This document shows positions 1,168 through 62,527 of a DNA stretch of 64,000 nt, piece after piece (the first letter of the stretch is position 1; each line of letters begins with the position of its first letter). The notes under the pieces are model-generated. The model was given only the letters and a program-made list of their open reading frames with translations. It was not told the DNA's origin and searched no databases. The stretch is from a virus. Lineage: Duplodnaviria; Caudoviricetes. The stretch lies in IMG/VR virus record IMGVR_UViG_3300032219_000688, positions 511 through 64,510 of that record, one strand, 5' to 3'. The position numbers and the translations under genes were made by a program.

Positions 1168-4035
1168 ATGACTACCAAATCTCACCATTATGCAGACAAA
1201 ATAATTGCAGAACATCCCAGAGCAGTATATGTTTTAGGAGATTCCTTTATTGACGCATTCGCTGAAAGTCCAAAATATTTTGATGCCTACAATACATCGA
1301 AGGATGCAGCAGAGATAGACTCTGGTATTTCTATTGAAAAGGTTGCCCCTATTGTTTATGGCTCTGACTATTCTGTTTTCCTATCTGGAAACTCTGAAAC
1401 ACTTACCTTGCCATCTTTCGGGGTATTTAGTTCAAGAGCAAAGTATGCAAAAAATACATTAGAGTTCTGGACAAAGATAGATAAGCCATATCTAGGAAGA
1501 CGAAAGATAGTTGGACCAGTAGGAGATACTAGCGATAGTGGTCTTTATGTAAATCAAACATCTCTCATCCTCAAAGTAGGAACTCAAAGTAAATCAGCAT
1601 ACATCAAAGACTTTAACAGACCATTCCTAATTCAAATAGTTAGTTACGACAATGTATGTCTATTGCTTGTAAACGGAGAACTGTTGATATCTTTGTCACT
1701 ATCTGATAGCGATATTGCTTTACTACCATCAAGCGATTCAATTGTTTTTGGTCCTGGAACCTATGACTGTATTTCAATTTATCCTTACAACGTAGACAGA
1801 AGCCAGGCTTTAAGAAGGTTTGCCTTTGGTCAGGGGGTATCGTTCCAAGAGAATGTCATAAAGTCATTTGACGGAGCATCTGCAATCATTGACTACTCTA
1901 AATCAAATTATGCAAATAACTATAATTATACTACAAACTCTAACTGGAAACAGTCAAAAAACAATAATCTAAATGTAGAACAGTATGCTTTATCTAATTT
2001 CCAATACACCCCACCAACATTTAATTGTGCCACTAGTTCTACTATCTCTTTCTCTGGAACAACCTTTAGTTTGCCAGCATCATCAAACCTAAAGTTAGAT
2101 AGTTTAGAGATGATGAACTTTCCAACAAAAGCATTCTACATGCATGGAAGTTACGCAGCCTTACCAGGCTCAGAGCAAATACTGTTTAAACTAGTAAATA
2201 ACAGCAATGACTCAACTTTTACTATTAGCGTAAACAGCAATAACATATATTATAAGATAAAGATTGATGCAACCGCAGAGTACACAATATTTGAGGAACT
2301 TGCTCCAGCAACAAACTTAATACTAAATTCAGGTGTTTATAAATTTATTATAGGACTAGACATAGACAAATTTACAGCATATTGCATAGAGAACAACTTA
2401 GGGTCAAATGTCTTAAACTTTTTTGCAAACCAAAAAGACCTATCTGTTTACATTGGTGGAAACGATGACCTAACTGTAAATAAAACATGTTTAGCAAACA
2501 TTAGTTCTGTAAAATTCTTAACAGCAGAAAATTTAGAAAAAAAGCCAACCCTTGTCCTGACCTCTGGTACGTTCAACCATCCAACTAACATAAATTCAAA
2601 TCCATCTGGAACTGAAGCAAAGCAAAATGCTATAACTGGAAGTTACGATATTAAGTCATACAGGGACAAACTAGAGTATGTTGACGGAGCCTACAGACTT
2701 TCAGTTGCCACAAACGGATACTGGAAAAATGATATTCCACTTACCCACTTTTGCAAAACTGTAAAAGATACTAATGGAAATGACACCTACACGTTTGACT
2801 TTATTCAATTTAATTATGACTACGAATCGCCAATACTTTTAGATTCAACCTACCTTGATACAACAAACTACGAAACCAGCGTAAAGACATACGTCACCTT
2901 TGAGCCACTCAATTCTGCGTACAAACAAGATTCTGTGTTTACAATTGTAAAAGCAAGTTCGGAAAGGGTTTTAGTTCCAGGGGCATCTTGGGCAACAGAA
3001 AAATACGAAATTACAGACAATTTTGTAATTTACCCACCAACAGGCATAGACCTAAAAGAACACACAATGGTTATTCATTTAGATTTTGATGTAGCAGATA
3101 CACAAAATAACGTGGTAACTATTCAAAAAATGCAGTTAGCATCACAAGCATACAACGCAAATGCAGAGAATCCAATAGGTACAAGGTTTGGTAGCAAATT
3201 AGTACCATACACATACACCATTCCAGTTTCTACAAGGCTGTATGATTACAAGGCTTATAACCCATTTCTGATTAATAAAAAGGATAATCCATATATCTAT
3301 ATGGCAAGAGATTCTGGAATTAGATTGGTAGGGCTTGGAACTACAACCGCTGGAGTTTATCGTGGAATCAAGATGCCAATTAATGAAAGTCTAAATAGTT
3401 TCTTTAACATAAATGTTTTGCAACTATCAATTTTCTATAATGCAGAATTAAATACTAGTTCTTCTCCATTCTATGCAAAGTTTCCAAATGCATCAGAACA
3501 AATTTTTGAGATACAGGCAAACAACAAAACTGTAAAATTCTACCTAACTAGAACTGGTAATGGAGACACAGCAACGCTATCTGCAATCTCTGACGAAGTT
3601 ACTAATCAAGACATCAAATACTATCTCAATGGAGAATTAAAAGCAAGTCCAAGCATATACACAAATAAGTGGTACACGTTGACCATAGTTTTCTCAAACC
3701 CATTGATTTTTGATGGTGCTGAAGGAGAGTTTGACTTAGTTGGCGGTATATCAATCGACAACTTGTCCTACTATCAATTTACACCAGAACAAATGGCAAG
3801 AAACGGTTGGCAACTAATAGTTCCATATACTTGGCAACATGTATCAAACACATATACATGGGAACAGTTGCCAAACCTTTCATCAATATCTCCTGTAGAT
3901 TCTTATTCTATGTTTACTGGAACAAATAGACTTATTGGTCAAAGCAGACCAGAGTACAGTTTGGCACTCATAGAAACAGGATATGACTACTATCCAGATA
4001 TTTCAAAGCAAACAATTACATCCATTCCGATATAA
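1168..4035 (+). CDS. Large beta-rich putative virion protein, possibly with concanavalin A/LamG-like domains (955 aa)
   Basis: Long ORF rich in S/T/N/Y, with LamG-like segments (TLEFWTKI, NKWYTLTIVF). It lies just upstream of the portal operon. Confidence 0.5.
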   Translation: MTTKSHHYADKIIAEHPRAVYVLGDSFIDAFAESPKYFDAYNTSKDAAEIDSGISIEKVAPIVYGSDYSVFLSGNSETLTLPSFGVFSSRAKYAKNTLEFWTKIDKPYLGRRKIVGPVGDTSDSGLYVNQTSLILKVGTQSKSAYIKDFNRPFLIQIVSYDNVCLLLVNGELLISLSLSDSDIALLPSSDSIVFGPGTYDCISIYPYNVDRSQALRRFAFGQGVSFQENVIKSFDGASAIIDYSKSNYANNYNYTTNSNWKQSKNNNLNVEQYALSNFQYTPPTFNCATSSTISFSGTTFSLPASSNLKLDSLEMMNFPTKAFYMHGSYAALPGSEQILFKLVNNSNDSTFTISVNSNNIYYKIKIDATAEYTIFEELAPATNLILNSGVYKFIIGLDIDKFTAYCIENNLGSNVLNFFANQKDLSVYIGGNDDLTVNKTCLANISSVKFLTAENLEKKPTLVLTSGTFNHPTNINSNPSGTEAKQNAITGSYDIKSYRDKLEYVDGAYRLSVATNGYWKNDIPLTHFCKTVKDTNGNDTYTFDFIQFNYDYESPILLDSTYLDTTNYETSVKTYVTFEPLNSAYKQDSVFTIVKASSERVLVPGASWATEKYEITDNFVIYPPTGIDLKEHTMVIHLDFDVADTQNNVVTIQKMQLASQAYNANAENPIGTRFGSKLVPYTYTIPVSTRLYDYKAYNPFLINKKDNPYIYMARDSGIRLVGLGTTTAGVYRGIKMPINESLNSFFNINVLQLSIFYNAELNTSSSPFYAKFPNASEQIFEIQANNKTVKFYLTRTGNGDTATLSAISDEVTNQDIKYYLNGELKASPSIYTNKWYTLTIVFSNPLIFDGAEGEFDLVGGISIDNLSYYQFTPEQMARNGWQLIVPYTWQHVSNTYTWEQLPNLSSISPVDSYSMFTGTNRLIGQSRPEYSLALIETGYDYYPDISKQTITSIPI

Positions 4036-6104: not shown

Positions 6105-7355
6105 ATGAGTATTCAAAAAGCACATTTTGACATTGACGGAAATAATGTCCGTATCTCCATGCCTTTGACTAAGGTGGACGAAGAACGAAGAATTGTATCT
6201 GGTTTTGCCACGCTTGATAACATCGACAAGCAAATGGACATTGTAACTCCAGAAGCATCAGTAAATGCTTTCTCAAAATTCCGTGGCAACATTCGTGAAA
6301 TGCACCAGCCAAAAGCGGTAGGCAAGATGGTAGCATTTAAAGAAGACAAATACTTTGACCCAGAAGAAAAGAAGTTCTATCAGGGTGTCTATGTGTCTGC
6401 TTACGTTTCTAAAGGTGCACAAGACACTTGGGAAAAGGTTTTGGATGGCACACTTACTGGATTTTCCATTGGCGGTAAAATGAACAAGTGGGATGATGGA
6501 TATGACGAAAAAAGCGATTCCGCTATTAGAATTATTAAAGACTACGACTTGGTTGAACTATCCCTTGTAGACAGTCCAGCAAATCAATTTGCAAACATCC
6601 TATCTGTTGAAAAGGTTGACGGTGTTGACACCATCACAGGCGAGGGTACTGACACAGTTCTAGAAAATGTATTCTGGGACAAAGAATCGGGATTGGTAAC
6701 AATCTCAGAAGAAGAAGTAGCAACTAGCCCAGTCACTGGTGCAAGTATGCAAAACATAGGTTTTGTCGAGAAGTCAGATGCTGACAAACTTGACATGATA
6801 AAGTTCTTAGTAGATAGTGCTAAAGGCATTAATACTTCTAAGACTATTAAAAAGGAGAATGATAACATGACCGATGAAAACGTAAACGTTGAATCAGTAG
6901 ATGTCGCTCCAGAGGCAGAAGTTGTAGTTGACGCTCCTGCTACAGAAGAAGTTGTTGAAGACGCTCCAGTAGCAGACCCAACACATGTAGAAGAAGTTGT
7001 AGAAGATGTAGTTCCAGGTTCAGAGGAAGAAATTGCCAAGGCAGTTTCAGAACTAGGCTCAACAGTTACAACAGCCTTTAGCGACATTACAGCAATCATC
7101 AAGTCTCTAGCAGATGCAAATGCATCACTAGTTAATGAAGTTGCTGAACTAAAGAAGTCTCTTGGATTTGTTACCTCAAAGGTTACAGATGCAGAGTCAG
7201 ACTTTAACAATCTTGGAAAGCGTATTGATGCTGTTGAAGCAGATACCGCTTTCCGCAAGTCTGGTGACCTCGGTGAGGTCATTCAGGAACCAGTACTGGT
7301 GGAAAAATCAGTATGGGGCGGAAGTTTCCTCACAACATCCGATTTACTAAAATAA
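6105..7355 (+). CDS. Prohead protease (HK97 family) fused to an acidic, coiled-coil scaffold region
   Basis: VSGFATLDNID, NIREMHQ, LTGFSIGG and ELSLVDSPAN motifs; the C-terminal half is E/V/A-rich and then coiled coil. Confidence 0.88.
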   Translation: MSIQKAHFDIDGNNVRISMPLTKVDEERRIVSGFATLDNIDKQMDIVTPEASVNAFSKFRGNIREMHQPKAVGKMVAFKEDKYFDPEEKKFYQGVYVSAYVSKGAQDTWEKVLDGTLTGFSIGGKMNKWDDGYDEKSDSAIRIIKDYDLVELSLVDSPANQFANILSVEKVDGVDTITGEGTDTVLENVFWDKESGLVTISEEEVATSPVTGASMQNIGFVEKSDADKLDMIKFLVDSAKGINTSKTIKKENDNMTDENVNVESVDVAPEAEVVVDAPATEEVVEDAPVADPTHVEEVVEDVVPGSEEEIAKAVSELGSTVTTAFSDITAIIKSLADANASLVNEVAELKKSLGFVTSKVTDAESDFNNLGKRIDAVEADTAFRKSGDLGEVIQEPVLVEKSVWGGSFLTTSDLLK

Positions 7356-13857: not shown

Positions 13858-16800
13858 ATGGCTGATATCGAATCCAATATAAAAGTAAATATAGATACGT
13901 CAGATGCTCTGGCACAACTAAAACTTTTACAACAACAGATATCAGCCTTTCAGCAAGCAATGAAGAATGCTGGGCAAGCAAATGCTCAAGCCGCTGCTCA
14001 AATGCAGCAAAATCTAGTATCATCAATTAACGCTACTGGTAAATTCAGAGCCAATATTCAGACAATTAAAACAAGTGCTGAATCTTTTACAGAATCCCTA
14101 GAAAAAAATAAACTATCTATTGGAGAATACTTTAGGTATGCTGGTGGGGCATCTAAAACTTTTGGTAAATTATTTAAATCATAATTTGCCACGATTCAGC
14201 AAGTGGCAATTGAACGAGTAAAGCAAGTTCAAACACAATATATTAAACTTGGTCGTGACGCTCAAGGTGCAATGAAGGCTATTGCTGTTAAACCACTAGC
14301 GTTAGATATGAATAGTCTTGCTACAAAAACTCAGATTGCTGCACAAAAACAACAACTCTTTAACCAGTTGATGAAACAAGGTTCAACTCAACTACTAAAC
14401 TTTGGTAAGAATACTCAGTGGGCTGGTCGCCAACTTATGGTTGGTTTTACTATTCCACTTACCTTGCTTGGAACAGCAGCATCAAAAGCATATATGCAAA
14501 TAGAACAGGCTTCTATTAAATTTAAGCGTGTTTATGGAGACCTGAATACTACAACAACAGAAACCAATAAAATGGTTAAGTCTGTGCAAGCACTTGCAAA
14601 TGAATTTACAAAGTATGGTTTGGCAGTTGCAGACACAATGGATATGGCTGCTCAGGCAGCAGCAATGGGTAAAACTGGTGCAGACCTGCTACAGCAAATT
14701 GACCAAGCAGCAAAACTTTCTGTTCTTGGTGGGGTAGACCAATCACAAGCACTAGCAACCACTATTAGCCTAACTGACGCATTCAAGGTTTCTACAGATG
14801 ACCTTAGCAAAAGCATTGACTTCCTAAACGCAGTAGAAAACCAAACTGCTTTGAGCATCGAAGACTTGACAGTTGCTATTCCAAAAGCAGCACCAGTTGT
14901 TCAGCAACTTGGTGGAGATGTAAAGGACCTATCGTTCTTCCTAACAGCAATGAAGGAAGGTGGCATTAACGCATCTGAAGGTGCCAACGCACTTAAGTCT
15001 GGTCTTGCATCTTTGATTAATCCTAGTAAAAAGGCTGCAGAGTTTGTTGGAAATCTTGGTATTAACATTAATGGAATTGTTGAGAGCAATAAGGGAGACA
15101 TCAAGGGAACGGTTATAGGCTTTGCTAAGGCTCTAGATACCCTAGACCCACTAAACCGTGCTCGTGCTATCGAACAGATGTTTGGTAAGTTCCAGTTCTC
15201 TCGTCTGTCAACTCTATTTCAAAACGTAATTGCTGAGGGTAGTCAGGCTCAGACTGTAGCAAGTCTAGCAAACCAGACAACAGAAGAACTAGCCATCCTA
15301 TCAGAACGAGAACTAAAAAGAGTTTCAGACTCTCCAATGTTCAAGTTTCAAAAATCTATTCAGGACATGCAAGCAAAACTTGCTCCTGTTGGTGAAGCAT
15401 TCCTAAAAGCAGTTACTCCAATTGTAGAATTTGTAAGCAAAATCCTAGATGGTTTTAATAATCTTAGTGATGGTGCAAAAAACTTTATAACAATTTTGGT
15501 CACTGTTGTTGGTGGTATTGGACCAGTTCTACTAATGACTTTTGGTCTAATTGCTAACGGTGTAGCAAACATTATGAAACTGTTTACAGGAATGAAGAGT
15601 TTTATAAACAAGACAACAAAGCCATCAGATTTGCTTGGCGAACAAACACAGTACATGAACTCAGAGCAACTTCGTGCAGCCGCTATTGCCGCTTCTCTTG
15701 ACCAAGCACATGCAAAACTGCGTCAAACATTTACATCCGAAGCAGCAGCAGTTCAGCAACTAACCGATGCATATAGAAATGCAGTTCAGGCTCAACAGGC
15801 ATTCTCTGGAGTTCCAGGAGTACCAGTTGGTAATCCAAACGCAACTCCAAAGAAATATGCTAACGGTGTATCTATGGTTCCTGGTCCTGCTGGTGCAGGT
15901 GACATTGTTCCTGCTCTACTATCTCCAGGAGAAGCAGTCATCCCAGCAAAATCTGCACAAAAGTATGCACCAGTTATCCGTGGCATGATTGCTGGAAACC
16001 TTCCAGGATTTGAAGATGGTACACCTGGTGCTGGTATGCGTCAAAGTATGATTGGTCCAATGACTAAAGAACAAATTGATGGTATGGCAAGAACTGGAGC
16101 AAAATTAAAAGATATTAGCGATGAAGTTGCTGCAGGTCCTTATGCTCAAACTCCACCAACTAATTATGGTACACAAATTAGTCCAACTACAGGACATTCG
16201 TTCCCAGCATTTGGAGTTGGTGGGATATATGAAAAACCAGATGGTACTAGAGTATTTGTAAAACCACAGATTGACCTAGTTTCTGCAATGGCAGAAATAA
16301 GAGGAACAACAATTGCTCGTGATGCCCATGGACTTGTATCGCCAGAACAAGCACTTCGTGTAATGATGGACCCAACAGACCCAGAGAATAGAAGAAAATT
16401 CCTTGTTCTTGAATCAGCACTTGATGAAAGAATTGGAAACATTCCAACATCATTTAGCAAAGAAGATTATTTCAAACAACTTGTTGCATCTCTTCTTCGT
16501 GGAGATAAAGACCTTGGAGTTGGAAATCTTGGTGGCAATGTTCTTGCAGACGTTGGTCCTGCTGGAGTATTCCAAAGAGCATCTGGTAAACGTGAACTTG
16601 GTGGCAAAATTAACTCAATGGAAGAGCAAGCCATTATTAACTTGCTTGGTGTAAAGGGCGGTGCTAAGAGATTCTTTGCTGAATCAACAGCAGAGATTGC
16701 TAAGAGCATGAAACCTGGTGAATATGATGCCGCAATGAAGGCAGAGATTCAAGCAGTTATTCCAAAACTACAGGCTACTATTGCTGGTTTTGGAAATCTT

Positions 16801-19800
16801 TCTCCAGAAGAAAAGAAAGCATATGCAGATATGCAGCAAAGACTTCAGGCAGGTATGTCTGTTGATTGGGGTAAGTATCAGGTAATGCATTCCAAAGTAC
16901 CTCCAAAGAAACTTGCTGAAGGTGGATTTGTTGGCATTGAAAACAGTCAGTCATTTGCTCAAAGTTTGATGAGCATGTCTAGTGATGAGATAAAGAAACA
17001 ACTTAATATCAATGACACTCACTTGGTTACCCCAATAGACTTAACAAAGAATCCAGAAGTTCTTGGTCAAATTAGAGATGTGCTTCCAGGAGTAACTAAA
17101 GAAGAACTGCGAGGATTTGAACCAGTATCTAATCTAACAGCACAACTTCCAGCAAATATGAACCAAAAGATGAAAACTCAGGGATATCCTGCTCAAACTT
17201 TTGCTTCAATTTGGAATGGGTTTATTGGCAAGTTATCTAAGAGTGCAACAATTGCTGGAATTGATTTGCCAAGTTCTCAAGTAATTGAAGACGAGTTGGG
17301 TACACAAATTGCTGCCGCTGGAGGAAATATAAATGATGTCAAAATTAGTGAAATTATTGGAGATGTTCTTGGAAAATCTTCAAAAGTTACTGACCTAAAA
17401 GAAACTAAACAAAAACTATACAGTTTAGCACTTAAGGTTGCACAACTTAGAAGCAAGCCAAAGCAACTAAGCCAAACAGGTAATGATTCAATTCATTCAA
17501 TTGTTCTTAGAATGATAAAAGATGGCTCTGCACGATTTAACGACAATGGAACAAGTATTACTAGAACTATTGGAGAAGGAAACGTTACAAGGTTCGGAAC
17601 TTGGGAGTTTGAAGGGGTAGGAACTGGCAAAGAAGATGGAACAATAGAGGACAAAGAAATACGAAGAAGAGCACAGCAAGCGGCTTATGGTCCAACTGGC
17701 TGGGCAACAGTAGGAAACTGGAACGCTCCAATGCCAACAGTAAATCGAAAACTTGTTAAGCCTCAAGACTGGAGTACAGTAACTAATCCTGCAAATTGGA
17801 ATAAGATGACTGCAGAACAGAAGATTCAGTATCTTTCTGCAATACCAGGAACCAATCCAACAACTCTTGGATTTAGAAAACAAGACTATGAACAGGGCTT
17901 TGGAAATAACAAGGGTCCTGCATCAGGATGGTCTTATGACTCTAGTAAACTAAAGGCTGGAATTAAGTGGAGAAATTCAAACCAAGCCATGCAGATGGGG
18001 TATAACGAAATGGCTGCAAATGGAATGATTCCACCAGCAGGACAAAAGTTCTTCAGTGCACTTGCCGCAGGTAAACAAGTTTTGAAGATGGCTAAGGGCG
18101 GAATGGTTCCAGGCTATGCAGAAGGTACACAAAGTGCTGGGAGAACAGGAAAGCCTAAAGCATCAGTATTTGACGTAGACGATACACTACTTGACCTAGC
18201 ATCATTCATGCCAGCACACCAAGAAAGAAACAAGGCTCTACCTAAAGAACAAAGACTTAACTGGTGGGAAGAAGTAGCCAAAAACCCTAAAGGTATTCCT
18301 GCCGCTATTCAAAGATTAAAAGATGCTCAGATGCGTGGTAATAAGATTCTTCTTATGACTGCAAGACCAAAGGCTTATGATGCTGTTACATTGGATACCC
18401 TGCAAAAACTGGGTATTGATACTAAGGGTGTCAAACTAATCTCTAGAGAAAATAAAGATTATCGTAAACCAGAACAGATGAAGTATGACAAAACTTCTAA
18501 GTATATGCAATGGTATGACATCGAAGAGTTCTATGACGATATGGCTAAGACTCGTGGTGCTGTAAGTATTCTAGGCATCAATGCTATTAATCCTCTTAAA
18601 CTTGCTAAGGGTGGAGTTATACCTGGATATTCTGGAGGAACTCCAGGAGCAGTTCCAGCACCACAAGAAGCATTACTTTCTAGACTTGGACAGTATCGTT
18701 CTCAAATAGTTGGTTCAGATACTAGGTCATTAACAAAATATGAGTCAGTTCTTAAACTTCATAGAGATGGACAATATACTGAAGCATATAAGACAGCAAT
18801 GGACTTATTTGAATATCTTGCTTCTGTAGATGAAAAGCGTGTGGTTCATCCAGGACTACAAAAGAGTGGTCTAAAAATGGAACAAGTTTATCCAGACCTA
18901 TACGCATATGAAGATGCTATTGCTGCTTTTAAGAAGGGTGGCGGAACAGAAAAGGTCATTGAGTGGGAAGAGACTTTGCCTATTGAACTTGCTAAGGGCG
19001 GAATCATTCCTGGATATGCTAAGGGAACAGATAAAGCAGATAAACCAAAACTAAAAGTAATTAATCCTGCAGGAGTTTCAAGGTATCTAGGAATTGTTAA
19101 AAAGATTACTGATAACACGATGGGTCAAACTATAAAAGATTTAGGAATGACTCCAGGACAAGAAAAATATCTGTGGAAGTTGTTTATGGATAATCCAGAA
19201 GCAGCAATGCCATATTTAGCAAAATTTACAACTCGTGCTGCAAAACCTTCTTTTGTTGGTCCAGGAAGAGGAATTTCTAAAATAAATCAGGATGAAGTTT
19301 TAAAAATCGCTAGAGAAAAAGGACTTAAAGGTGCTGATAAAGCAACAACTGGTTATGGATTTTCTGGTAAATTAGGACTTGATTATAGACCAACAGAAGA
19401 CCAACTTTTAAAAGATTTAGTAAATGTTATTTTACCAAATGCACAAGGACAATCAAAATTAGAAATTCAAAGATTAAATCAGTTAAGAAAATTAGTTAAG
19501 CCTTATGAAAAAGACCCATCAAAGATGCCAGGTGGTATTAAAGCAGCATTACAAGATATGTTTGCTATTCACAGAAGTCAATCTAAAAATCAAAAAGCGG
19601 TTCCAGCAGGTAAGGTTAAAAGTCAATTTAACATGTTTGCTGATGGACCACTAGAAGGTCCTGGATTATACACATCTGCAACATTAAAAATATCTGACCA
19701 AAAATGGAGTGATTATGCTGGAGACAATCTGTATAGACAATCGTATTCTCCAGGGGCTTGGAATCAACTTTTAAAAAGCAAAGGATATGCTGATGATGCT

Positions 19801-22800
19801 GCAATTATAAATGAAATTGAAAAGAATCCTAAACTATTAGAAAAATATGGATATAAGATAGATAAAACTTATGGACCAAGCGTTGACCTAGGTGGTCTAA
19901 AAATTTCAGATAAACTTATTCAACATTTACTTAAACAAGGGTATGTTGGATATTATGGTGGTGCAACTGTTAAAACAAATTGGCGTACTGGCGAAAAAGG
20001 TTTTGGACTAGAATCATTTACACCTAACATGAATAGCGTTTTGGGTTATGCTAATGGTGTATTCTCAGTTCCAGGACCAAAGGGTGCTGGAGATGTAGTT
20101 CCTGCAATGCTATCTCCTGGTGAGGCTGTTATTCCTGCAAAGCAAGCAGCGAAGCACCGCCCTATGATTCAGCAGATGATTGCTGGTAATTTGCCAGGCT
20201 ACGCTAAGGGTGGAATTATTCCTGGGTATGAGGATGGCGGTATTGTTCAAAAATTTAGTATTGGTGGATGGGCTAAAAAGTTGGGTAGCAAAGTAGATTC
20301 TGTTGGTGAAAAACTTCAAAGTAGTTCTTTGTGGTCTAAATTTGCAGATAAGATGCTGGGTGTTGATAGCACACAAGAAAAAACTCTAAAGATTACTCAG
20401 GAAAATCTAGAAGAAGAATTGTCTTTATCAATTAAGAAGTATGATAGAGCACTACAAGAAAACAAACAGTTAAGAGCAAAAGTTCAATTAGATGAAAAAG
20501 ACCAGAAGAGACTTCAGGAAAATGATGAATATATTGCTAGAAAAGAACAAGAATATCTAGAAAAAAACAATATGACAGTTAAAAAGCCTAAAGGTCTTAA
20601 GTCATTAATTACTAGAAATGAGTTTACAGGAAAAGCCACAGGAATGATGTATGGTGCTTCTGGTTTGGCTGGTTTGCTAACTCAGGTTCCTGGTGATGTT
20701 GGTAAGGGTGCTCAAGCAGCACTACCTGCTATTGGTGCTATGACATCTGCTATGTCTATGATTCCTGGACCTGCTGGTATGGTTGTTGGTGGTTTGTTGG
20801 CTGTTGCAACAATTGCTGGACAGTTAGATGCACATTTTAAAGCGTTAAGAGAAGAGGCTGCAAAATCTGTAAGAGCGTTAGGTGCATCAAATGAAGCAAT
20901 GAAGGGTTTTGCGGAATTTGCTAAAAAGGTTAGTTCTAAAGAAATTATGGATAAAAGACGTGAAGAGGCTACTGGAAGTTTCTTCTTTATTAAGCCAGGT
21001 AAGAAAACTTTTGGTGAGTCTTTTATGGAGTCAGAAAAAGGAAAAGAGTTAACCACAGCAACAGCAAGTGCTCTGAAAAGCCAGGACACAAAGTCAGCAG
21101 CAGCGTTAATTACATCTCAAATGTCTACTGCTATTATTAGTGGTTTGCTAACTCCAGAAGAGGCACGAAGTGTTGTAGCAAATCTTGGAAAACAAATTAA
21201 GAATAGTTCTTTTGCAATTGACATCAATTCAAAAATAACATCGTTCTTTGGACCTGATGGGAAGCCATTAGATTTTGCAAACAATACTATTAAGGTTGCT
21301 ATGGAAGCAGTAGTTGCTGTATCAGACGATAGACCTACTGGAACTCCAAATGATAGTGCTACTAGTGGCGGTGCAGTAAATGAAGCAATGATTTCTGCCA
21401 TGAACAGCATTCAGGCTGCCCAAGATTCCTTGGCTCTAAATAAAAAAGCAACACAGGAAGACAAAGATGCTTTGGCTGAAACTAGCAAAACATCTTTGCT
21501 AGATATATTTAATAAAATTCAGTTTTCAAATAACAAATCTAACCTTAATGAGTCTGCTATTACAGCGGTAGAGGCAGCATACAAAGGTAGTGGTTTGGAA
21601 GAAAGAGCAAAAGAAGTTGCACAAAGAGTTAAGAATTCCGATAGTTTGTATGACCAAAGCCAAGAAATTTTTATAAATCAAATGATTGCATCAAAAAATC
21701 TAGGTGTTACACAGGGATTGACAGCAACTAATTTGGGTATAGGTGGAGCAGACCTTGTAGAACTTTTGCAAACAAATGCTGCAGCAACTAATCAGTTACT
21801 TTCAGTTGCTGGAACCATGTCCAAAGAACAGGGTCAACTTCTTGTAACCTCTCAAAAAGGAAAAACTTCTGAGGAAATAGCCTCTGCTGCTAGTGCAGTT
21901 GGTTTAGCACAAAAAACAACTGGCGTATATGAAATGGATGACGCACAAAGACAATCTATTTTGGAATACTATATCAGTGAAGAAGGATTAAAGAAAGCAC
22001 AACAATTAGATAAACAGTTTGCGGCATTGGATAAAAAGAAAACAATCACTATTGAAACGATTATGAATGCTTCTGGAAATAATACTGCATTAACAAATGC
22101 CTTAAAGGGAGATAACCTAGTAAAGTTTAATAAATATTTTGACAAACTTAAAGATAAAAAGAATAAACTAATATACACAACAGAATTTACTTCGTTAATA
22201 AATATTCCAGATGCTAAACTAAAACCAGCAATTATAAATTATATTAGCGAAAAGTATAAAGATTTGAAGCCTAAAGATATGAGCGATACAGAAATTTTAA
22301 AATTCAAGGTAGAGTATGCTGCATATGAGGCAAATAGAGTAACAGATGCAGGAGCGTTGCAAGACTTAACAGTAGACCCTAATGCAGACACAGGTGCTGA
22401 AAAACAAGGTCCAGACCCATCTATCCTTGACCCATATGTTAAGATGCTTCGTGAAGGTGCTAACTGGCAACAGAAACTAACTGTTGGTTGGGATGCTTCA
22501 TACAAGGCTATTATGAGATATGGAAAAGCAGCCATTACACAAATGTCTGGTGTGGCAGCCCTTATGAAGCAATACGGTGCTGATACTGGAATTATTAATG
22601 ATTTCTTGGGCGGTACCCCAGAAGAACAAGACAGAATCATTGATAAGACTACTGGAAAACTTAGAGCAGGAGCAGGAATCCTTATTGCTAAGATGAAGCA
22701 AATTAAGGATATGCAAGAGTTTGGTCTTTCATATGTATTAGCAACAGCAGCAGAACGTATGGCTAAAGACAATGAGTTGTATCAGGCTGGTCTTGATGTT

Positions 22801-24399
22801 ATTGGTAATAAAGAAAAGAAGATTAACGACAAGTATGACAAACGCATCAAGGCTCTTGACGAGATTGGCAAACTTCAGGATAAAAACAATCAGCAACAGC
22901 AGGATACTCTTACTTTGGCTGACGCTCTTTCTAAGGGTGATATAGCGGCTGCTGCAAGAGCAGCAATGGCAGCAAAACAAAATAATCAAAAGCGAGCATT
23001 AGAAGAGGCAAAAGAAAGTATTGAACTTGCTCGTAAACAAGAACTTGCTACTGTTACTACAACAATTTTGGGAAAGACCGTAACTCGTGCTGACCTAGAA
23101 TCACAGATTGAAGTCAATTCAGGAAAGATTGCTGAACACAAGCGTATAGAACTAAACCGTCAGGTTGAGATTGGAAAGAATGCACTGATTGCTGCTAAGG
23201 CTAGTGCAGAACAACTTGCTAACGGAAAGGCTATTGCTGGTCTTCCAGGAGCAAATGGTAGTGGTCCTACTACTGGTGGCGGAACAGACCCTAAGAAAAC
23301 CCCACCTGGAAATAATCCACCTAAAAATAATCCACCTGCTTTTAGTCTTACAAATTTCCAAAGTGCAGAAAAGGCAGCAACTGTTGCTGGTCTAACGGAA
23401 GCCAAAGGTAAGGCAGAGGCAGCAGTAGAAACAGCAAAAACTGCAATTACTAAAAAATTTAAAAGTGTTAGTTTATTAGAACTAAATACAGCACTAAAAA
23501 GTGGTAATTATCAAGAAATATATAAAAATCTAAAACCAGCAGAGCAAAGCGAATTTGTTTCAATGTTTAAAGACTTGCAAACAAAAGAAACTAATGTAGA
23601 TAAATATACTCCTCAATATGGTGGAGACATCACAAGTAGTAAAGCAGGTGAAGAAGCAAAAGCAGCAATTAAGGATACAATTCCACAGGCTGTAAAAGAT
23701 GCAGCAAGCCTAATTATTACAAATGGTAGAACTGGTCAATTTGGAACGTGGACTGCAGACAAGCAAGACTATGATAACGCAAGAAGAGCCTACAAAGATA
23801 AACTTAAAAGTATGGGTCTTGAAGGGGTTAAGTGGGAAAAAATAACTCCAGAAAATCAGGAAAAATTAAAACCTCAATATGACGCATATCAGGCACAAGA
23901 AAAAGAAGTAAGAGACAAGTTAAAGGCAACAAATGATGCAAGAAAAACTTTGATATATTTTATGAAAAAATTAAAGGTCACTGGAGAAGCAAATAAGGTA
24001 AAGTTTTTAAATCAATATTTTGGAACAGCCTATGACATATTTGAAAACGATAGTCTCAGACCTGTTGACGGTACAAAAGACTTTATGTCCTGGAAACATT
24101 ATGCTATGGGTGGTATGGTTGCTCCAAAGGGATATGCTCGTGGTGGTGGTATTTACGGAACAGATACAGTACCTGCTATGCTTACCCCAGGAGAATTTGT
24201 TATGCGTAAATCAGCGGTAGACCAAATAGGTTCTAAAAAACTAAATGCTATGAATAGAGGAAACGTAGGTTCGGATTCAGTGTATAATTATAGTATTACA
24301 GTCAATGCAAACTCTTCAGATGCCAGCGATATTGCAGATGCAGTTCTTAGACAGATTAAGAGAGTTGACTCACAAAGACTTAGGAGCAATGTTCTATAA
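13858..24399 (+). CDS. Tape measure protein (~3,513 codons), interrupted by one in-frame TAA at 14182-14184
   Basis: The ORFs 13858-14184 and 14203-24399 are in the same frame, separated by TAA plus six sense codons. TP901-type core (KNTQWAGRQLMVGFT, FLNAVENQT, EGANALKSGLA), TM-like segments and C-terminal GTDTVPAMLTPGEFV. Confidence 0.92.
15856..16020 (+). repeat. 55-aa direct repeat, copy 1, in TMP
   Basis: YANGVSMVPGPAGAGDIVPALLSPGEAVIPAK...MIAGNLPGFEDG; 40/55 identical to copy 2 by manual alignment. Confidence 0.95.
16201..16911 (+). other. Atypical kinase-like (HipA/PI3K-like fold) domain embedded in TMP
   Basis: Gly loop GVGGIY, VFVK lysine, AE helix, DKDLGVGN catalytic-loop-like segment and ADVG. 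Confidence 0.55.
18157..18600 (+). other. HAD-superfamily phosphatase domain (PNKP 3'-phosphatase-like) embedded in TMP
   Basis: Motif I FDVDDT (D at 18172), motif II LMTAR, a conserved K and motif IV FYDD, in the correct order and spacing. Confidence 0.85.
19561..20000 (+). other. ADP-ribosyltransferase-like domain embedded in TMP
   Basis: IHRS ... GPGLYTS ... DYAG ... LLKQGYVGY resembles the H...GxGxY[TS]...Y...GYDG pattern of PARP-like ART domains. Confidence 0.45.
20047..20211 (+). repeat. 55-aa direct repeat, copy 2, in TMP
   Basis: YANGVFSVPGPKGAGDVVPAMLSPGEAVIPAK...MIAGNLPGYAKG. Confidence 0.95.
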
Positions 24400-62179: not shown

Positions 62180-62527
62180 TCAATCAATCGGAATATCGTT
62201 AGGATGGATAGAGTTTATGCCAGCCTTTGTATAAATGTTTCTGGCTCCAGTGTTATCGTCAATGGCAAGGGTAGCATCTGAAAGTTTCTCAGCACACTCA
62301 GCCTTCCATTTGTTAGTAAATTTATAGTTATATGGATTAAGAAGAAGACTGTTATACTTTAGACCAGCATCTTTTAGAGCCTTCTCTGTCTCTGCTCTCA
62401 TGCTTCGGCTTCTTCCACTAATCACAATCACCTTGGTATTAAGTGAATTAATATAATCAATGGTCTTTTGGATTGGTGTAGAACTCATGTGTTCTAGGAC
62501 GGTATCGTCAATATCTGTAATAATCAT
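62180..62527 (-). CDS. Stand-alone HAD phosphatase (PNKP-phosphatase-like)
   Basis: ITDIDDTV, VISGR, WK and AIDD; minus-strand TGG-TATACT at 62534-62542. Confidence 0.8.
   Translation of the reverse strand: MIITDIDDTVLEHMSSTPIQKTIDYINSLNTKVIVISGRSRSMRAETEKALKDAGLKYNSLLLNPYNYKFTNKWKAECAEKLSDATLAIDDNTGARNIYTKAGINSIHPNDIPID

Follow-up and report, generated by a model that had tools for sequence, protein, structure and literature searches.

A tape measure protein with a bracketed, exchangeable array of enzyme-like modules in an uncultured freshwater phage

How long-tailed phages inject pre-made proteins has so far been poorly understood. Tape measure proteins (TMPs) of the mycobacteriophage TM4 type contain embedded cell-wall hydrolase motifs. 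For phage T5, it is documented that the TMP, pb2, is expelled ahead of the DNA and that its hydrophobic segments enter the membrane (PMC10038345), and in Thermus phage P23-45 a virion RNA polymerase fused to the TMP, gp96, transcribes the first genes, an activity proposed to take place at the TMP pore as the DNA enters (PMC10770324). In these published systems, T5 pb2 and P23-45 gp96, the TMP-borne enzyme is a single fixed domain. Here we describe a TMP encoded in a 64,000-nucleotide stretch (hereafter the window) of the IMG/VR virus record IMGVR_UViG_3300032219_000688, in which the new part is an array of several modules that are exchangeable among relatives. The record is 64.5 kb long, is estimated to be ~60% complete and derives from an uncultured freshwater phage.

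Unlike the peptidoglycan enzymes of T5 pb2 and the TM4 type, the modules of the window TMP are several and exchangeable, and the recognisable ones (kinase, HAD phosphatase and ART-like) would, given their predicted activities, use ATP, phospho-substrates or NAD, which points to the cytoplasm. What the protein shares with T5 pb2 is an enzymatic part inside the TMP, which in T5 is expelled from the tube at infection (PMC10038345). With P23-45 gp96 it has in common the giant size, an enzyme expected to act in the cytoplasm and the transmembrane segments; gp96, in contrast, has one fixed N-terminal enzyme and no array, junction peptide, bracket repeats or reported exchange (PMC10770324). Polyvalent proteins (Iyer et al. 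2017, PMC5512222), which are injected, are likewise large and multidomain, with kinases, ADP-ribosyltransferases (ARTs) and further conflict domains in shuffled architectures, and the feature by which they are recognised, several unrelated effector-type domains shuffled within one polypeptide, is found in the window TMP. They are known from head-associated, N4 virion RNA polymerase (vRNAP)-type and conjugation contexts, whereas the present case is a TMP, and their original description mentions neither tape measure proteins nor phosphatases (PMC5512222). Their commonest domain (~36%), a zincin metallopeptidase (MPTase) proposed to act as a separator, was not found with Pfam in the window TMP or in the cargo of 68 relatives. 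A further parallel is offered by the Sle1-type TMP-related effectors of actinobacterial contractile injection systems, in which a TMP-derived membrane-targeting platform carries an exchangeable functional domain that differs between species; unlike the window TMP, they have a single C-terminal functional domain and belong to a bacterial contractile nanomachine (PMC13277306). A survey of mosaicism in phage proteins could not confirm genuine recent mosaicism of TMPs (PMC10684548), and our literature search turned up no TMP reported to carry several cassettes in an array bracketed by repeats and delimited by joints.

Defined by the N-terminal 606 aa, the family of the window TMP comprises at least 598 loci in IMG/VR, 80 of which were fetched (L numbers denote fetched loci and P numbers homologous proteins, the window TMP being P0001); the TMP open reading frames (ORFs) of these relatives range from 1,845 to more than 4,055 aa. 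Mapped by BLAST, residues 1-606 are conserved in all relatives at 60-99% identity and residues 2000-3398 are weakly conserved in most, while residues 607-1948 reappear only piecemeal. The last are the residues enclosed by two copies of a 55-aa anchor repeat, RA and RB (Table 1), which an initial annotation of this DNA had already described correctly. The copies share 40/55 amino acids and 106/165 nucleotides, both in frame, and agree at 43/55, 45/55 and 18/55 of the first, second and third codon positions; because the third positions have diverged while the residues were kept, the duplication is, to judge from its codons, old and has been retained because selection acts on the peptide. At 52-60% identity, RA and RB belong to a single anchor class, within which G, D, E and I are invariant in 39 anchor copies. 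Few parts of the TMP are as constrained as the anchors, whose ratios of nonsynonymous to synonymous substitution (dN/dS) are 0.03-0.28 overall and 0.03-0.15 when only the four closest relatives are considered: RA (0.03-0.20) has some of the lowest values of all, and RB (0.04-0.28) is 83-97% identical to the RB of close relatives. A second internal anchor is present in 38 of 94 non-redundant TMPs, at a distance from RA of 346 to ~2,070 aa.

Between the anchors, the modules are separated by short, Gly/Pro-rich joints of the general form [LMY]-A-x-G-G-h-h-P-G-Y, combining the [Y/L]AxGG unit found ahead of every anchor core with the PGYxxG that ends RA and RB. The four joints of the initial annotation are present where it placed them, as is the C-terminal variant at 24100-24220 (YAMGG...YARGG...VPAMLTPGEFV); a six-frame scan of the 64-kb window found both patterns, joint and anchor, in the TMP ORF only. 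Its wording of the linker needs amendment, however: the extended GG-h-h-PGY motif is real, with four copies in the window, but J1 lacks the PGY half, and a fifth full joint, J5, had been missed. A joint-like MAANG also lies inside module 2 (aa 1270). The joint motif is kept at the peptide level while its codons diverge; its conservation mainly as a nucleotide-level recombination signal is unsupported, the shared runs being only 9-11 nt long, as expected from peptide and codon usage.

The content of the brackets varies among relatives by whole modules. Coding M1 as K, M2a and M2b as a and b, M3 as H, M4 as 4, M5N as n, M5C as R, a joint as j and an anchor as [A], the window TMP reads [A]KjabjjHj4jnR[A]. 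The closest relative holding modules 2-4, L083 (93% identical over aa 545-1310), reads [A]KjabjjHj4[A], without n and R: its M4 ends in ...PIQ-LA, at J4, and continues with NGVFSVPGP of RB, module 5 being absent. In L085 ([A]KabjjHj[A], without 4, n and R), J3 runs straight into RB as ...PLK-LAKGGVIPGY-ANGVFSVPGP, and P0005 ([A]Kjabj[A], without H) has the junction ...PLK-LANGVFSVPGP. Elsewhere, the kinase is joined directly to the HAD module via J1 (L016, KjHjj...), an unrelated ~190-aa module replaces H or 4 (P0003 and L026), an extra module and a second R are present (L082) or, in the fragment P0016, the order R-j-H is the opposite of that in the window. In the aligned proteins, the crossovers thus placed fall inside the joint, for example at LA/NG and PGY/ANG, and the comparison demonstrates exchange of whole modules at it among related phages. 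As the joint hardly varies, in-frame recombination inside it adds, deletes, replaces and reorders whole modules.

Breakpoint statistics and divergence give a matching picture. In a pooled test requiring flanking high-scoring segment pairs (HSPs) of at least 55% identity, which supersedes a cruder test over all relatives and the whole C-terminal part that was too noisy, 228 breakpoint clusters were obtained, of which 85 fall no more than 12 aa from a motif, compared with 24.9 expected (nominal binomial p 2e-25, the clusters not being independent). The window sites shared by more than two partners are the end of RA (22 partners), the start of RB (27) and J3, J4 or J5, and nearly all such sites in the relatives are likewise at an RA end, an RB start or a joint. 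Measured against L083, the synonymous divergence (dS) of the window is 1.21 for the N-terminal scaffold, 0.47 for M1, 0.07 for M2a, 0.02 for M2b and 0.15-0.17 for HAD, M4 and RB; such uneven ages along the TMP indicate that part of the array was recently transferred between TMP genes that have otherwise diverged. Among cultured phages, neither megablast nor tblastn detected a counterpart of the cargo region. The idea of a silent cassette reservoir nearby was dropped: tblastn of the post-RA TMP sequence of 79 relatives against the non-TMP DNA of the window and 86 loci found no source copies at 1e-6, the weak matches being to one small ORF in L019.

The modules themselves were characterised from two AlphaFold2 models (aa 545-1310 and aa 1460-2020), and their presence was counted over the 94 non-redundant TMPs. 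M1, present in 49, is a predicted atypical kinase with a bilobal kinase fold and its catalytic residues kept. In a fold search of 48,161 PDB representatives all 50 listed matches have the kinase fold, the best being CotH (5jda; Z 11.7, root-mean-square deviation 4.2, 215 residues aligned) and others including MavQ (Z 10.5), PI4KII-alpha (9.8), CtkA (9.1), Fam20C (8.9) and HipA (8.5); Foldseek returned the same families, and the matches in BFVD include PI3K/PI4K-type proteins of phages, inside large proteins of uncultured phages. In 35 sequences sharing 41-93% identity, the motifs GxS..G, VxVKP, AxAE, RxDxDL...N and DxG never vary (G120/S122/G130, V142-K143-P144, A153-E154, R222-D224-D226...N231 and D239-G241), and from their order and spacing we read them as the Gly-rich loop, the beta-3 Lys, the helix-C Glu, the catalytic D...N and the metal-binding DxG. 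As for free-standing kinase copies, 11 short matches lie almost all on contigs shorter than 3 kb and are probably TMP fragments.

M3 (18/94 TMPs) is filled by a Pfam HAD match (aa 1310-1436 of the module's aa 1296-1466), and the residues of HAD motifs I-IV, D1324, D1326, T1328, T1386, K1427, D1445 and D1446, are kept in at least 95% of the 18 TMP-embedded copies; by its motifs (DxDxT, T, K, DD), it is an intact HAD phosphatase. Elsewhere in the window, a free-standing 115-aa HAD-like ORF on the minus strand (62180-62527) carries DxDDT and ends in a similar GINxIxP tail, but resembles the TMP HAD module only weakly (BLASTP E 0.005, 28% over 65 aa). M5C belongs to a family of 22 proteins among 1.84 billion representatives, in which HRS, GPGxY(FA) and KGY are conserved, R and S in the first of these motifs and Y in the second being invariant or nearly so. 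Its only non-helical fold matches are ART-fold proteins, AcrIF11 (6kyf; Z 5.8, 117 aligned), SAIP (5.6), diphtheria toxin (5.6) and VPA0770 (5.0), all below the tool's clear level; the weak Foldseek matches are to diphtheria toxin, PARP, cholix and RES, and a homologue, P0027, has a weak PARP match (E 0.066). No acidic residue is invariant among 11 TMP copies, the likely catalytic position reading A/T in the window, and a family profile run against the PDB gave chance matches only, so that an ART fold is probable on weak evidence and activity uncertain. In L082 and L087, which are the same contig, two tandem ART-like modules with a joint between them occupy aa 1832-2306 of the TMP.

The remaining modules are less easily assigned. 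M2a is found in 23/94 TMPs and matches nothing in Pfam, PDB sequences or the Atlas; M2b, from which it parts in relatives, is found in 13/94, with dN/dS of 0.24-0.41; M4 is present in 5/94 (dN/dS 0.41 against L083) and M5N in 3/94 (0.46 against L082). Searches of Pfam, PDB sequences and the Atlas with M1, M2, M4 and M5 returned nothing usable. In the cargo regions of 68 relatives, Pfam finds HAD in five, DUF3626 in two and a primase zinc finger in one; the last (L003:11819-18025, cargo aa 1953-1984, 2.6e-06) and a DUF3626 match (L061:11006-13183, 1e-04) are below the Pfam cut-off. Wherever a true orthologue exists, every module, the poorly modelled ones included, has a dN/dS of 0.1-0.46, and all window modules are by this measure under purifying selection.

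These properties bear on the possibility that the insert is extra ruler only and the enzyme likenesses are relics. Such a reading can point to the 5,002-aa TMP of P23-45, which accompanies an extremely long tail (PMC10770324), and to M4, M5N and M2b, predicted to be helical or modelled at low confidence; we nevertheless regard it as extremely unlikely, as the catalytic residues of the kinase and HAD modules are invariant across copies only 25-90% identical, M1, M2a and M5C are predicted to fold as alpha/beta globular domains, dN/dS in the modules is 0.1-0.46, and length alone does not account for a module being replaced by an unrelated one of similar size. The view of the modules as globular domains, proposed in the initial annotation, holds at least for the kinase fold, HAD and the probable ART; for M4, M5N and M2b, helical or of low confidence in the models, it is overstated. 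The comparison over more than 80 relatives that it had called for found conserved flanks, variable module content and junctions inside the motif, and the HAD domain fills its module as it had claimed. Its five modules of 297, 387, 157, 115 and 339 aa follow from the joints, but structure prediction and the relatives reveal modules 2 and 5 as composites (M2a with M2b, M5N with M5C). The role that it gave the motif, that of a modular joint, is borne out as an exchange point, and its predicted disorder (pLDDT ~30 in both models) fits a hinge or linker; the M2a/M2b and M5N/M5C boundaries, which part in relatives, have no canonical joint in the window.

The array is set in a scaffold whose identity is well supported. 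PF10145 (PhageMin_Tail) matches aa 131-328 with 3e-24, above the curated cut-off; ten PHROG TMP families match the ORF, within aa 18-607 only (1.7e-96); and the gene order, from the portal through the S78 prohead protease, the putative capsid gene and small ORFs to the TMP and then two tail genes of 202 and 1,771 aa, parallels that in Streptomyces phage Mildred21, whose homologue, annotated as TMP, has 2,104 aa and is 33% identical to the window TMP over the N-terminal domain. Because domain, families and gene order agree, the window ORF is, on this comparative evidence, a genuine TMP of a siphophage. Its nearest relatives in culture are Streptomyces phages of the Stanwilliamsviridae, and its low GC, like its freshwater source, suggests freshwater Actinobacteria. 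In the prohead protease gene (6105-7355), the S78 domain makes up the first ~170 aa of a 416-aa ORF, the rest being probably a fused scaffold-like region. The hydrophobic segment TM1 lies ~105 aa before RA in 26/26 relatives checked, and another hydrophobic segment, TM2 in the window, follows RB by ~130-650 aa in every relative checked (~200 aa in the closest); in cargo-poor TMPs, the second segment is ~400 aa after RA. In each of these 26 TMPs, the cargo is flanked by TM1 and TM2. The C-terminal scaffold, 23-55% identical in most relatives, has an A+E+K+Q+L content of 45% versus 37% in the cargo, and its residues 2016-3299 are presumed to be the ruler.

This placement matters for a second alternative, that the cargo acts in the producing cell, late or after trimming at assembly, and that fusion to the TMP only ensures co-expression. 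The TMPs of lambda and T5 do lose or separate a part during assembly (PMC10038345), and that the cargo is in the virion is something we infer here. However, the modules sit in mid-scaffold between two conserved hydrophobic segments, so that their removal would sever the TMP; the anchors flanking them are among its most constrained parts; and the TMP-fused enzyme of P23-45 is carried in the virion and used at entry (PMC10770324). We consider action in the producing cell very unlikely.

A different role for the joints would be that of protease sites, the TMP being a polyprotein from which cuts at each joint, made during assembly or following ejection, would release the enzymes and leave a shortened ruler. 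The motif is kept as a peptide despite codon divergence and sits in disordered linkers, and its [LM]-A-x-G-G part is what we take to resemble double-glycine or LXGG-type cleavage motifs. Known systems offer some support, as T5 pb2 and lambda gpH are processed, the cut in T5 falling between a hydrophobic stretch and the enzymatic domain (PMC10038345), and polyvalent proteins are thought to be self-processed (PMC5512222). Against this, no cysteine protease or metalloprotease was found in the TMP, the cargo regions of 68 relatives or the 20 window ORFs scanned, among which the prohead S78 protease is the only peptidase by Pfam, although divergent versions could escape Pfam. Moreover, the joint is degenerate at orthologous sites, J1 having decayed in L004, L005 and L006 and the sequence reading KKYSKGNVPKGY in L005 and KKYGLGTSKV in L004, and it is missing in a sublineage without AxGG. 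Cleavage at the joints is possible and the data do not require it, and a polyprotein of this kind is doubtful in our judgement; because the joint decays in some lineages and no protease was detected, a role as linker and exchange point is favoured over obligatory cleavage. Most likely, the joints would act as flexible linkers, so that every domain could be stored unfolded in the tube and later refold independently of the others.

Taken together, the explanation that we favour, with a probability of roughly 0.7, is that of a scaffolded siphophage TMP with an insertion hot spot between its transmembrane segments for exchangeable enzyme cargo, most likely delivered at infection. The scaffold consists of the PhageMin_Tail domain, TM1, the 55-aa anchor, TM2, the long C-terminal region and the C-terminal anchor, with the TM1-TM2 loop serving as the hot spot for globular cargo. 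In the window, the loop holds a predicted atypical kinase, an unassigned domain, an intact HAD phosphatase, a small module and a probable ART-fold domain, closed by the second anchor. At infection, the TMP would exit the tail before the DNA and insert its hydrophobic segments into the host membrane; as infection begins, the loop cargo would then most likely reach the host interior and act there as pre-made effectors. Delivery is suggested by analogy, because expulsion of the TMP before the DNA, with membrane-entering segments, is documented in T5 and proposed in P23-45, and P23-45 also suggests an extended, metastable storage of the cargo that counts toward tail length. In function, we infer a polyvalent protein built into a ruler.

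Several observations weigh against this explanation. The phage is uncultured and known here from its sequence alone. Three folded 280-aa domains per trimer do not fit the ~4 nm lumen of a tail tube, and the cargo would thus have to be stored unfolded or elsewhere. About two-thirds of the BLAST-defined breakpoint clusters are off the motif, many of them being single noisy HSP ends. A large sublineage (e.g., L046, L053 and L039) lacks both AxGG joints and a second anchor although it carries the kinase: there, RA is followed by ~300 residues without assignment, then the kinase and then a Lys/Pro-rich linker. The ART call on M5C is weak, with middling Z scores (5.6-5.8) and no conserved catalytic acid, and the poorly modelled M2b, M4 and M5N could be extended, ruler-like sequence. 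Lastly, an in-frame TAA (14182-14184) near the start of the TMP separates the main ORF from a short upstream one, and this genome may be defective or mis-assembled at that base. The 108-aa product of the upstream ORF is 99% identical to the N-terminus of the L002 TMP, and the TAA position is Glu in 84/84 ungapped relatives; the stop reflects either a nonsense mutation or an erroneous base in the record, and the ancestral window TMP is predicted to have been ~3,513 aa long.

Table 1. Coordinates of the TMP and its parts in the window, in order of position (joint sequences in the last column; pLDDT, predicted local distance difference test score from AlphaFold2).
Feature	Position	Strand	TMP residues (aa)	Remarks
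Upstream ORF, true TMP N-terminus	13858-14184	+		108 aa; matches residues 1-115 of relatives' unbroken TMP ORFs
TMP ORF	14203-24399	+		3,398 aa; TP901-type; P0001
Hydrophobic segment TM1	15475-15588	+	425-462	Kyte-Doolittle mean up to 2.18
Anchor repeat RA	15856-16020	+	552-606	55 aa; pLDDT <50
Module 1 (M1)	16066-16911	+	622-903	atypical protein-kinase-like (predicted); pLDDT 80-98
Joint J1	16912-16926	+	starts 904	LAEGG; without PGY half
Module 2a (M2a)	17005-17604	+	935-1134	folded alpha/beta (predicted); pLDDT 70-84
Module 2b (M2b)	17605-18087	+	1135-1295	pLDDT <50
Joint J2	18088-18129	+	starts 1296	MAKGGMVPGYAEGT
Module 3 (M3)	18130-18600	+		HAD phosphatase by motifs; PF03767, 4e-17; class IIIB / PNKP-phosphatase-like
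Joint J3	18601-18642	+	starts 1467	LAKGGVIPGYSGGT
Module 4 (M4)	18643-18987	+	1481-1595	small, predicted helical; pLDDT 32-57
Joint J4	18988-19029	+	starts 1596	LAKGGIIPGYAKGT
Module 5N (M5N)	19030-19482	+	1610-1760	low-confidence helical
Module 5C (M5C)	19483-20037	+	1761-1945	probable ART fold; pLDDT 75-95
Anchor repeat RB	20047-20211	+	1949-2003	55 aa; pLDDT 36-68, hairpin and helix
Joint J5	20200-20241	+		YAKGGIIPGYEDGG; fifth full joint, overlaps RB end
C-terminal scaffold	20248-24099	+	2016-3299	weakly conserved across family
Hydrophobic segment TM2	20749-20829	+	2183-2209	
C-terminal anchor (class C)	24100-24327	+		two YAxGG units, then GTDTVPAMLTPGEFV…

The C-terminal anchor represents a second class that shares the core VPAMLxPGExV with RA and RB, and in the short TMPs of the family it is preceded by three or four [Y/L]AxGG units. 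Annotated TMPs of cultured Gordonia, Rhodococcus, Clavibacter, Nodularia, Microcystis, Acinetobacter and Stenotrophomonas phages contain the class C core, with further matches in Vibrio, Synechococcus and Mycobacterium phage records. It was also seen in proteins of T4-like cyanophages annotated as lysozyme/endolysin or transmembrane, in S-SCSM1 (H19/H20, 164223-164405) and S-SM2 (H33). A 155-aa ORF of L019 (4623-5090), right after the putative major capsid gene, begins with the anchor core (DVVPAMLEPGEAVIP) and is the sole copy of the motif outside TMP genes among 87 loci. Some relatives have a second bracketed array just before the C-terminal anchor (L068 aa 2856-3585, L013 2922-3342, L037 2667-3085 and L030 1709-2080), this second cargo site lying between an internal anchor, of C type in L068, and the terminal one; those of L068 and L030 hold an ART-like module, and none of the four segments has a Pfam match. 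A broader proposal, tentative and in our view improbable, is that the joint A-x-G-G-h-h-P-[GN]-[YF] and the anchor core G-x-D-x-V-P-A-x-L-x-P-G-E-x-V form a general plug-in interface of giant TMPs across several unrelated aquatic phage lineages. Packing, registration and release of each cassette would then fall to a specific partner that reads this interface, be it the tail-tube lumen, the hub, a chaperone or a protease.

In at least 598 environmental phages, then, the TMP loop between the transmembrane segments serves as an insertion site where kinase, phosphatase, ART-like and many unassigned modules can take one another's place, and because most modules match no Pfam family, they also offer new folds and activities. 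Provided that the cargo is delivered, these loops would constitute a large reservoir of early-acting anti-host or anti-defence effectors; delivery would also account for the two-fold variation in TMP length among close relatives and bear on whether TMP length always equals tail length, and the joint together with the anchor would be a natural design rule for loading foreign proteins into siphophage tails. Should the plug-in interface prove true, the TMP would be a natural programmable multi-protein injection device, its payload evolving by cassette exchange.

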